Part shown: positions 10,596-28,942 of the stretch, piece after piece
Layout of the letters: every line of letters begins with the position of its first letter
Numbering within the stretch: position 1 is the first letter of the stretch
Source: Escherichia coli
GTDB lineage: Bacteria > Pseudomonadota > Gammaproteobacteria > Enterobacterales > Enterobacteriaceae
Strand: one strand, 5' to 3'
Assembly (NCBI RefSeq): GCF_003334765.1
Contig: NZ_QOWT01000012.1
Length of the DNA stretch: 64,000 nt
Translations under genes and position numbers: made by a program
The notes under the pieces: generated by a model
What the model saw: only the letters and a program-made list of their open reading frames with translations
Databases searched by the model: none
What the model was told of the DNA's origin: nothing

Positions 10596-10630
10596 TGTGA
10601 TCCAGAGGCTGGGTGACAAACGTATAATTG

Positions 10631-10729
<99 letters not shown>

Positions 10730-11930: not shown

Positions 11931-12029
11931 GCCGGATGCAGCGTAAACGCCTTATCCGGCCTACAGTTCATTGCAAATCCATTCAATTTCAATGCACGAT
12001 GTAGGCCTGATAAGCGTAGCGAATCAGGC
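11931..12029. repeat. BIME: two inverted REP elements
   Basis: gccggatgcagcgtaaacgccttatccggcctaca and tgtaggcctgataagcgtagcgaatcaggca in inverted orientation. Confidence 0.85.
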
Positions 12030-12061
12030 AATTTTAATGTTTAACTTCCCTGTTTAATCAG

Positions 12062-26824: not shown

Positions 26825-27793
26825 TTAGACCTGGTCTTTTTTGTCGTCAACCAATGGGCTGGCGTCGTGTTCTGCTTCGATCTCTTCAGCAGGAAGCGGG
26901 GCAGGTTCAGCGTCTGGCGTAACAAAGGTTTCGGTAGATACTGCCAGCGGCTGGCCAATTTTCGTGACAGACAGGCTTTCCAGTTGCTCAACCAGATTCA
27001 CTTTACCCGGTGCAAACAGGTTGATAACGGTGGAACCGAGTTTAAAGCGACCCATTTCCTGGCCTTTCAGCAGTGCCACAGAACCGTCGTTTTCCCCGGC
27101 AGGCCAGGTCCAGCGCTTGATGATACCTTCGCGCGGCGGCGTAATGGTGCCCGCCCAGACCGTCTCAATGCTGCCAACAATCGTCGCTCCGACCAGAATC
27201 TGCGCCATTGGGCCAAATTCGGTATCGAAAAGGCAAATCACGCGTTCGTTACGGGCAAACAGATTCGGCACGTTCTGAGCCGTGAGATGGTTAACGGAGA
27301 AGAGATCGCCCGGCACGTAGATCATCTCACGCAGAATACCGTTGCACGGCATGTGTACGCGGTGGTAGTCACGCGGGGAGAGGTAAGTGGTCACAAACGT
27401 ACCGTTGCGGAACAGGTCCGCCATCAGATAGTTGCCTGCCAGCAGGGCTTCGAGGCTGTAGTTGTGGCCTTTGGCTTGCAGGATTTTATCTTCTTCGATT
27501 TTACCCAACTGGCTGATAACGCCATCGGCAGGCATGACCAGTACATTCGGATCGGTATCGATTGGGCGTACTTCGTCACGCAGCGGACGGACAAAGAATT
27601 CGTTAAAGGTGCGGTAGCTGGCGGTGTCCGGCTTTTGCGCCTCTTTCATGTCGACCTTGTAGTATTTAACGAACAGATCGATAACCAGTTTTGTCAGCCA
27701 TCCTGCCCGCTTGCTTGCGCCCCAACCCGCCAGGCGAGTAAGCCATAGTTTCGGCAGAATGTACTGTAGCGAAAGTTTAAATGAATTTAACAA
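26825..27793 (-). CDS. psd: phosphatidylserine decarboxylase proenzyme
   Basis: 322 aa with LGST self-cleavage motif ([11 protein letters not shown]). Confidence 0.92.
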
Positions 27794-27889
27794 GGTAGCC
27801 TCCAGGCCATTGTTTTGTCGTTCCTGATCCGGCCTACATGCCGGATCCTGAAAAAAAGGGGACGATTCTAACGACGGTTAGCTTAATTG

Positions 27890-28942
27890 TCAGTCATCCG
27901 TATCAGAAAAGTTTTTACGCGTTTTTACCTGCGCCATGCTTTCCAGAATACGGTGATAGTTTTCGAAACGGGTTTCCGCGATTTTCCCTTCCTCAACCGC
28001 TTCCCGGATAGCGCAGCCCGGATCGGTATCGTGTTTGCAATCGCGATATTTACACAGACCTAAATAGTCATGGAATTCGACAAAGCCCTGAGTGATTTGT
28101 TCCGGCTCCAGGTGCCAGAGGCCGAACTCACGCACTCCTGGGGAGTCAATCACATCACCGCCGTGCGGGAAGTGATACAGCCGAGCGGCGGTCGTGGTGT
28201 GCTGACCGAGCCCCGAGTTGTCAGAGATATCGTTGGTCAGGATCTCTTTTTGCAGCCCCAGCAACGCATTCAGCAGGCTGGATTTGCCGACGCCAGACTG
28301 CCCGGCAAAAATGCTGATGCGCCCGGTCAACGCCTCTTCCAGCGGTTTTAGCCCATCCTGAGTATGGCTGGAAACCATCAATACGCGATAACCGATATTG
28401 CGGTAGATATCCATCTGCTCGTTGACGAACGCCATGCCTTCGTCGTCCAGCAGGTCTATCTTGTTGAGCACAATAATCGGCTCAATCTGCAAGGTTTCGC
28501 AGGCCACCAGGTAACGGTCGATAATATTGAGCGACAGCTCCGGCAAAATGGCGGAGACAATGACAATCTGGTCGATGTTGGCGGCAATAGGTTTTACGCC
28601 GTCGTAGAAATCCGGACGCGTCAACACCGAGGTACGCTCATGCACCGCTTCCACGATCCCTTTGACATTTACGCCTTCCGCCGCCGGTTTACCCGGACGC
28701 CAGACTACGCGGTCGCCGGTTACCAGCGAACGGATGGTACGGCGAATATTGCAGCGGTGAACGTCGCCATCGGCGGATTCCACATCAGCGTGCATACCAA
28801 AGCGGCTGATGACGATACCTTCATCAGGCTCGCCAAACAGATTGTCGTCGTAGTCGGGCTTCTCCTTAGACGTTTTAAGACGACGCTGGTGATTGGCGTT
28901 CACGCGGCGCTGCTGGCCTTTGGAGAGTTTATTTTTACTCAA
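27890..28942 (-). CDS. rsgA: ribosome small-subunit biogenesis GTPase RsgA
   Basis: ORF 27890..28975; start trimmed to TTG (…[13 protein letters not shown]); G-motifs ([14 protein letters not shown]) and C-terminal zinc-finger Cys cluster. Confidence 0.85.

Follow-up and report, generated by a model that had tools for sequence, protein, structure and literature searches.

The short spacer between rsgA and psd of Escherichia coli holds an inverted repeat which, as far as comparison of related sequences can tell, is a real stem-loop held by compensatory mutations across the Enterobacteriaceae and is conserved as structure and not as sequence. With its structure both conserved and covarying in the alignments, the element is a more solid one than the original prediction assumed. 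It was noticed in a window of 64,000 nucleotides (the whole stretch of DNA analysed here) which is E. coli K-12-like: a 501-nt query round the dyad is 100% identical to BW25113 and to many other strains, the dyad region covered by this query is present in 5426 of 5426 complete E. coli genomes, and the gene names rsgA and psd/asd are those of the RefSeq annotation of identical E. coli DNA. Window positions are converted to those of NC_000913.3 by adding 4362567. The hairpin is without description in the searchable literature or in Rfam, and its kind is familiar; the sole match of the Rfam covariance models was a spurious snoRNA (E = 9.5) away from the hairpin, and literature searches on psd with sRNA, Hfq, CsrA or CLIP found nothing.

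On the plus strand the dyad reads GATCCGGC (27826-27833), CTACAT (27834-27839) and GCCGGATC (27840-27847), which makes a perfect 8-bp inverted repeat with a 6-nt loop, and the arms can be extended to 13 nt at 85% complementarity (27821-27833 with 27840-27852). The flanking genes are both on the minus strand, with the rsgA ORF stop at 27890 and the psd ORF start, a TTG, at 27793. Coordinates and sequence of the perfect repeat read as had been claimed, and its placement between these two genes matches the ORFs. Perfect 8-bp dyads with loops of 3-10 nt number about 20 to 33 in the 64-kb window (33 with nested ones), and 9.2 +/- 3.3 are expected from its dinucleotide shuffles. Because about 1% of the shuffled 96-nt rsgA-psd spacers contain such a dyad (54 of 5000 dinucleotide shuffles), the dyad by itself is weak evidence and only mildly unusual. 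As RNA, the 34-nt segment reaches -18.5 kcal/mol (z = -6.7 against shuffles). The elements of the psd leader round it are the following.

27851-27857, minus strand: U7 tract 3 nt 5' of the hairpin, with CCCC (27858-27861) before the tract, read from the sequence.
27826-27847, minus strand: core stem-loop with RNA 5' arm GAUCCGGC (27847-27840), loop AUGUAG (27839-27834) and 3' arm GCCGGAUC (27833-27826), based on the inverted repeat, the fold and covariation.
27821-27852, minus strand: optional stem extension from fold prediction, in which UUC/GAA pairs close a 2x2 AG/AG internal loop.
27810-27825, minus strand: linker AGGAACGACAAAACAA, predicted to be unpaired and nearly invariant, based on alignments A2 and A4 (described below) and on folds.
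27791-27809, minus strand: Shine-Dalgarno hairpin UGGCC-UGGA-GGCUA (27809-27796) together with the psd UUG start codon (27793-27791), based on folds and alignments.

Conservation was followed through a scan of species-representative genomes, which gave 80 psd loci with rsgA upstream in nearly all of them. The hairpin stands between the T-run and the conserved linker in every Enterobacteriaceae locus scanned (weakly in Cedecea), and the same position is occupied in 29 species-level Enterobacteriaceae genomes and in about 40 further distinct metagenome variants. The genera that bear it include Escherichia, Enterobacter, Citrobacter, Superficieibacter, Pseudescherichia, Siccibacter, Pseudocitrobacter, Kluyvera, Phytobacter, Mangrovibacter and Pluralibacter. 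Between genera the 5' arm differs (GAUCCGGC, GUUCCGGCG, ACCCGCU, UGCCUGACGCC, GGUCCCGC, AUCAGGCGC and others) with complementarity to the partner kept. The stem pairs by genus are all complementary, namely GAUCCGGC/GCCGGAUC, ACCCGCU/AGCGGGU, UGCCUGACGCC/GGCGUCGGGCA and GAUCCGACG/CGUCGGGUC, and metagenome contigs add further variants, for example GGUCCCGC/GCGGGGCC and GGCCCCCGC/GCGGGGGUC. The original prediction had staked itself on the dyad being present and conserved in relatives with the same gene order, and there the hairpin is kept, through compensatory changes and not through sequence identity.

Covariation was assessed in several alignments. In A2, a structure-naive MAFFT alignment of 28 genomes, 9 of the 10 pairs of helix 1 (8 core and 2 outer pairs) are changed on both sides; over 15 pairs, the Shine-Dalgarno helix included, 87% of the cells are paired, compared with at most 48% in slid controls, and 0 of 500 shuffles reach the observed value. 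A4, also structure-naive MAFFT and made of 40 distinct sequences, shows changes in both partners for 7 of 8 pairs; cells with a double change number 39, compared with 11 +/- 3 in shuffled and at most 17 in slid controls, and the covariation score is 0.41 against a control maximum of 0.13. All 8 of 8 pairs are double-sided in A5, a covariance-model alignment of 29 genomes which was fitted to the structure and so leans toward it. The slid control is more reliable than the shuffle, because kinship of the sequences inflates the shuffle control and sliding preserves relatedness. RNAalifold, unaided, predicts five core pairs from A4; it did not recover the hairpin on A2, because six divergent rows are misaligned there. 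A covariance model built from A4 (R1) has one match in the window and matches all Enterobacteriaceae loci, three Cedecea-like loci weakly, with 0 matches in the loci of Erwiniaceae, Yersiniaceae, Pectobacteriaceae, Hafniaceae, Morganellaceae and Vibrionaceae. Among the loci scanned the hairpin is absent in the other families of Enterobacterales (Pantoea, Erwinia, Yersinia, Photorhabdus and others), and since these families lack it, it is not essential for psd expression.

Variation within the species was followed in a 73-nt segment, which is single-copy in 5426 of 5426 E. coli genomes (median 1 place), identical in 4303 of them and different at one position in 1120. In six aligned variant genomes the arms of the segment have 0 differences; every change affects the loop or how long the T/C run is. 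The loop reads AUUUAG in O157:H7, AUGUUG in E110019 and, inverted, CUCUAC in E. albertii-like sequences; E. coli-like metagenome contigs have the loop variants AUGUGG and AUGCAG, and one single contig has an arm-breaking change. The C4-T7 tract (27851-27861) is not of fixed length: T6, T7 and T8 as well as C3, C4 and C5 occur in E. coli genomes and metagenome contigs. Strain GPEC1054, whose rsgA is annotated as a frameshifted pseudogene, has a 22-bp tandem duplication of CGTTTCGAAAACTATCACCGTA in the rsgA 3' end (window 27949-27970); its 22-bp longer match was considered as a change of the dyad and set aside, the duplication sitting in rsgA and outside the dyad.

It could be argued that the repeat has no function at all and is a neutral GC-rich palindrome persisting by descent, as one 8-bp dyad is unremarkable in 64 kb and related sequences can mimic covariation in shuffle tests. 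This is considered highly unlikely, for many independent double changes keep complementarity, clearly above the slid controls, and the variation within the species avoids the arms.

Which strand carries the structure can be judged from the tolerated mismatches. The stem columns hold 20 G·U/U·G cells versus 9 A·C/C·A cells, and in 21 of 29 species the sense strand gives the more stable fold; the G·U excess and the stability of the sense fold speak, though only moderately, for RNA structure formed by the psd-sense strand and against a DNA or antisense element. In hairpin-bearing species the distance from the hairpin 3' end to the psd start is constant at 24-35 nt and the rsgA-psd spacer measures from about 90 to 169 nt. 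Insertions in Siccibacter, Pseudocitrobacter, Kluyvera and BIGb0383 fall between the rsgA stop and the promoter, and where they shift the rsgA stop the hairpin stays with the psd leader. At the level of the aligned loci, these comparisons show a structure that is under selection, with the sense strand favoured, and that moves with the psd leader.

The position of the hairpin relative to the psd promoters follows from published work. Transcription of psd-mscM comes from a sigmaE promoter within rsgA and from psdP2, which is activated by CpxR via a GTAAA-N5-GTAAA box (Hassoun et al. 2021, PMC8138132). The distances given there are 41 nt from the CpxR box down to the P2 start and 197 nt from the sigmaE start down to P2 (PMC8138132). 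In the window the sigmaE promoter can be read as GGAAC-N18-TCGAA at 28103-28076 on the minus strand, with a start near 28069-28070, and arithmetic from both published distances places the P2 start at about 27872-27873 and the hairpin at about +26 to +47. Two features of this region are listed here.

27914-27928, minus strand: perfect CpxR box GTAAA-N5-GTAAA within the coding end of rsgA, the box of the published psdP2.
27865-27893, minus strand: sigma70 consensus-like promoter, CTGACA (27893-27888), 17 bp, TAGAAT (27870-27865), with 10 of 12 consensus matches.

The latter promoter overlaps the rsgA stop codon, and its predicted start at about 27858 would set the hairpin at about +12 to +33. 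The same layout of -35, 17-bp spacer and -10, with a GC-rich discriminator, is readable from Escherichia to Photorhabdus and Vibrio, and CTGACA-17-TAGAAT is put forward as a conserved, predicted sigma70-like promoter that is consensus-like. The two estimates of the start disagree (about 27872 for P2, arithmetic from PMC8138132, versus about 27858 from the conserved promoter prediction), and with either of them the hairpin falls within the psd leader, at about +26 for the first and about +12 for the second. Because the sigmaE, psdP2 and sigma70-like promoters are all upstream of it, it is part of the psd-mscM 5' leader. The idea of an element separating the two cistrons was therefore misplaced, the hairpin being downstream of both published psd promoters (PMC8138132). 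That paper leaves the hairpin unmentioned, and the strings "terminator", "palindrom" and "intergenic" have 0 occurrences each in it.

The sigmaE-type motif GGAAC-N18-TCGAA (28076-28103) inside rsgA is conserved beyond the Enterobacteriaceae, in Pantoea, Erwinia, Yersinia and Serratia, and the CpxR box is patchy outside the family, being found in some Pantoea, Dickeya, Rahnella and Hafnia (loci L029-L049). A common origin of the hairpin and the sigmaE or CpxR promoters was considered and rejected, as the sigmaE-like motif, and often the CpxR box, is present in the hairpin-less Erwiniaceae, Yersiniaceae and others.

In the direction of transcription the hairpin is followed by CAGGAACGAC and by no U-run; the seven U (27851-27857) precede it. 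The absence of a U-run 3' of the dyad, already stated in the original prediction, holds on either strand, and the terminator scan gave 0 matches at the hairpin. Between 4382346 and 4392435 no RNA 3' end is reported in the Term-seq tables of Adams et al. 2021, though weak expression could hide one below threshold; psd and rsgA are without any row in these tables, where 4382346 is directly followed by 4392617 and 4378960 by 4392435. Because there is neither a U-run 3' of the hairpin nor a Term-seq 3' end, an intrinsic terminator is excluded.

A hairpin of this kind could also serve the upstream gene. After read-through from rsgA and an endonucleolytic cleavage further downstream it would, like a REP, block 3'-to-5' exonucleases and protect the 3' end of rsgA mRNA, and it is indeed GC-rich, stands 43 nt downstream of the rsgA stop and resembles the ends of REPs; the E. 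coli counterpart of the terminator-like hairpin of other families is, moreover, weak (-9.8 kcal/mol, z = -1.6). Such protection of rsgA is nevertheless thought quite unlikely, since the Term-seq data of Adams et al. 2021 are without a 3' end at rsgA/psd (low expression could hide one) and since insertions that displace the rsgA stop leave the hairpin together with the psd promoter and leader. Outside the Enterobacteriaceae another GC-rich hairpin occurs in the spacer, with the -10 hexamer TACAAT within its loop and the discriminator as its 3' arm (for example L035, at about 2440-2475 with psd at 2501, L037, L038, L046, L047, L060-L062, L069 and other loci). In Enterobacterales other than Enterobacteriaceae a T-run lies directly 3' of that hairpin, and the two resemble a terminator of rsgA that overlaps the core promoter of psd; Vibrio has the -10-loop hairpin and no T-run. 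The E. coli equivalent of the -10-loop hairpin is weak, -9.8 kcal/mol with a 16-nt loop.

A further reading stays at the level of transcription, with the hairpin as a pause hairpin or weak attenuator just after the psd promoters, possibly acting with the U7 tract. A -10-like hexamer just 3' of the start is a layout known for sigma70-dependent promoter-proximal pausing. If psdP2 starts near 27872, TAGAAT (27865-27872 region, minus strand) occupies +3 to +8 of the P2 transcript, and a sigma70-dependent pause from it would fall in the U-tract, which is an idea only. The promoter-proximal position 3' of the U-tract and this arrangement of TAGAAT at about +3 to +8 would suit a pause element, as would an elemental pause motif G(-10)/Y(-1)/G(+1) seen by eye at 27830/27820/27819. 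On the other hand, the hairpin lacks a U-run on its 3' side, the terminator scan and the Term-seq tables are both empty there, the hairpin-to-pause spacing is 6 nt versus about 11 nt in his-type pauses, and loop and flanks are without a conserved pause signal, so that the probability given to a pause or attenuator is very slight.

The original prediction described the dyad as REP-like but shorter. The likeness of sequence stands for K-12, in which the plus strand ATCCGGCCTACAT equals the 13-nt tail and CATGCCGGAT the 10-nt head of a REP when compared with the seven true REPs of the window, and so does the shortness, 22 nt against about 35; membership of the REP family does not. Tail comes before head, which is a permuted REP order, the central GCGGCG...CGCC part is missing with nothing between the two matches, and the full consensus of about 35 nt (GCCGGATGCGGCG...CGCCTTATCCGGCCTAC), read as one imperfect palindrome, is not matched. 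The genuine REP/BIME elements of the window, which served as the comparison set, lie at about 10629-10729, 11931-12036, 46472-46572 and 53279-53318; its BIMEs are inverted REP pairs about 47 nt apart, and there is one single REP in addition. The 11-mer ATCCGGCCTAC has 9 matches in the window at no more than one mismatch (0.58 expected), elsewhere only in true REPs, and GCCGGATC occurs 5 times (2.5 expected). The REP tetranucleotide GTAG/CTAC can be read in K-12 (loop AUGUAG); O157:H7 and E110019 have it altered, and E. albertii-like sequences have it inverted. A true member of the REP family was accordingly rejected as a candidate: the segment is single-copy, its order is permuted, it has no middle and the CTAC loop is lost within E. 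coli. The orthologous hairpins of other genera do not resemble E. coli REPs. The NC_000913.3 record used is devoid of repeat features, at the dyad as well as at the genuine BIME between rnr and rlmB, so that a missing REP annotation at the dyad carries no weight.

The protein-binding site of the original prediction, understood as a sequence-specific site on DNA, is unlikely, as the arms diverge freely between genera with complementarity retained; a sequence-specific DNA operator is disfavoured because the half-site sequence is not conserved among relatives. Taken broadly, as a degenerate REP or a palindromic protein site (an operator, a gyrase/IHF target or a Dam GATC pair), an element acting on DNA could appeal to the REP matches of K-12 (13 nt to the tail, 10 nt to the head), to the 11-mer ATCCGGCCTAC being otherwise confined to true REPs of the window and to the two GATC sites in the dyad. 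All the same, it is regarded as extremely unlikely: arm sequences change between genera and are complementary still, one strand tolerates G·U pairs, E. coli itself has genomes without the REP-like loop, each genome has the segment only once, and conservation of the GATC sites stops at Escherichia and Citrobacter.

Along the leader itself the order on the minus strand, 5' to 3', is CGTCCCC, U7 (27857-27851), CAG and then the hairpin, and a C-run followed by a T-run is retained in all Enterobacterales loci compared. The outer extension pairs of the stem find little support in the comparison of species (UA pairs in 14 sequences, 11 unpaired; CG pairs in 11, 9 unpaired), and the UUC/GAA extension was dropped as a firm part of the stem on account of this weak cross-species pairing. 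A long-range UCGU/ACGA pairing present in one MFE fold was likewise dropped, as by-eye reading found it not kept in Citrobacter, Siccibacter and Kluyvera. The K-12 loop can be read as AUG-UAG, a start codon with an immediate stop; this is probably coincidence, because it is not kept in other E. coli or in relatives. In the linker AGGAACGACAAAACAA, which is near-invariant across the Enterobacteriaceae, a GGA directly adjoins the hairpin at its 3' foot, and another GGA lies within the loop of the Shine-Dalgarno hairpin, at a CsrA-like spacing from the first. Judged by this two-GGA arrangement, the linker (27810-27825) could be a candidate protein or sRNA site. A putative RybB-psd pairing was considered and dropped for a mismatch in the seed. 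In the Shine-Dalgarno hairpin 97.9% of the cells are paired and variation consists of one-sided G·U to A-U changes only, so this hairpin is without covariation evidence either way. The psd UUG start codon is able to pair with CAA just 5' of it.

This anatomy leaves room for an effect on translation initiation, in which the hairpin would mark the 5' edge of the 30S region, keep the linker 27810-27825 free of pairing, for use as a standby or S1 site, and insulate the Shine-Dalgarno sequence and the UUG from variable upstream sequence. The constant hairpin-to-start distance of 24-35 nt, the invariant linker, the conserved and partly sequestering Shine-Dalgarno hairpin and the weak UUG start of psd all accord with it, and unrelated hairpins are found 25-35 nt 5' of psd in Rahnella, Edwardsiella and some Vibrionaceae (Grimontia, Enterovibrio). 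However, many Enterobacterales are without any hairpin there and the constant distance may merely mirror the conserved linker sequence, and for these reasons a translation element is judged distinctly improbable.

The leading proposal is that the hairpin would be a cis-acting structural element of the psd-mscM leader which acts on mRNA stability or processing. The probability given to it comes near to an even chance and stays a little below it, the effect on stability or processing is the inferred part of the proposed role, and confidence in a specific mechanism is moderate at best. Structures in 5' UTRs can obstruct RNase E. Every transcript entering psd, whether from rsgA read-through, the sigmaE promoter, psdP2 or the sigma70-like promoter, carries the hairpin, which by the mechanism envisaged would be a stable obstacle between the 5' end, or a processing site in the U-tract, and the A-rich linker with the coding region; the obstacle would limit 5'-end-dependent attack or scanning by RNase E, and the output of Psd and MscM might in this way be made independent of the choice of upstream promoter. 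What is found agrees with an RNase E obstacle in that a stable conserved leader structure lies 5' of the predicted unpaired A/U-rich linker (27810-27825). Against the proposed role it counts that an estimated 12-25 unpaired nucleotides precede the hairpin, which is not at the extreme 5' end: its distance is about 25 nt from the P2 start (arithmetic) and about 11 nt from the start predicted for CTGACA/TAGAAT. On these estimates the hairpin would not qualify for classic 5'-terminal protection of the ompA type.

A broader proposal is that U-tract, hairpin, GGA linker and Shine-Dalgarno hairpin may together form an undescribed, Enterobacteriaceae-specific cis-regulatory leader tuning Psd (phosphatidylethanolamine) and MscM post-transcriptionally, which is unlikely though worth keeping in mind. 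If true, it could work as an RNase E obstacle or processing site, as a platform for Hfq, CsrA or sRNA, or through UTP-sensitive slippage at the U-tract, and it would lay an extra layer on the sigmaE and Cpx envelope-stress control of psd-mscM. The gene psd makes the major membrane lipid of E. coli and, as only a few phospholipid genes are known to do, answers to both sigmaE and Cpx; in its regulation promoters alone have so far been dissected. Because the hairpin is maintained, stands in the common leader and is inside the published constructs, it could influence reporter read-outs and the basal level of Psd and MscM. Should it act on stability or translation, a post-transcriptional layer would be added; should it have no measurable effect, it would be a well-documented structure-conserved 5' UTR hairpin and no new category would be opened.

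Among known systems, the intrinsic terminator resembles the element in being a GC-rich hairpin adjoining seven U, and differs in that the U-run stands before the psd hairpin and not after it. REP and BIME elements are likewise extragenic GC-rich palindromes, and the K-12 sequence is identical to their tail and head, whereas the psd hairpin is 22 nt long, single-copy and kept in position across genera while its sequence diverges. REPs can, as Newbury and co-workers reportedly found in 1987, act as 3' exonuclease barriers in operon mRNAs. The published psd promoter architecture (PMC8138132) covers the same region, and its constructs psdP2 -196/+95 and psdBis -391/+57 contain the hairpin, which is downstream of both promoters and not part of either. 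The stabilising stem-loops of 5' UTRs and RNase E obstacles, of which ompA hp1 is an example, share with the psd hairpin a stable leader structure, a variable loop and a stem conserved as structure only. Their difference from it is that the psd hairpin is by estimate about 12-25 nt from the 5' end and limited to one bacterial family. Richards and Belasco are said to have described such "scanning obstacles" to RNase E in 2019, and the psd hairpin is like the RNase E obstacles of 5' UTRs in standing between the 5' end and an A/U-rich unpaired segment.
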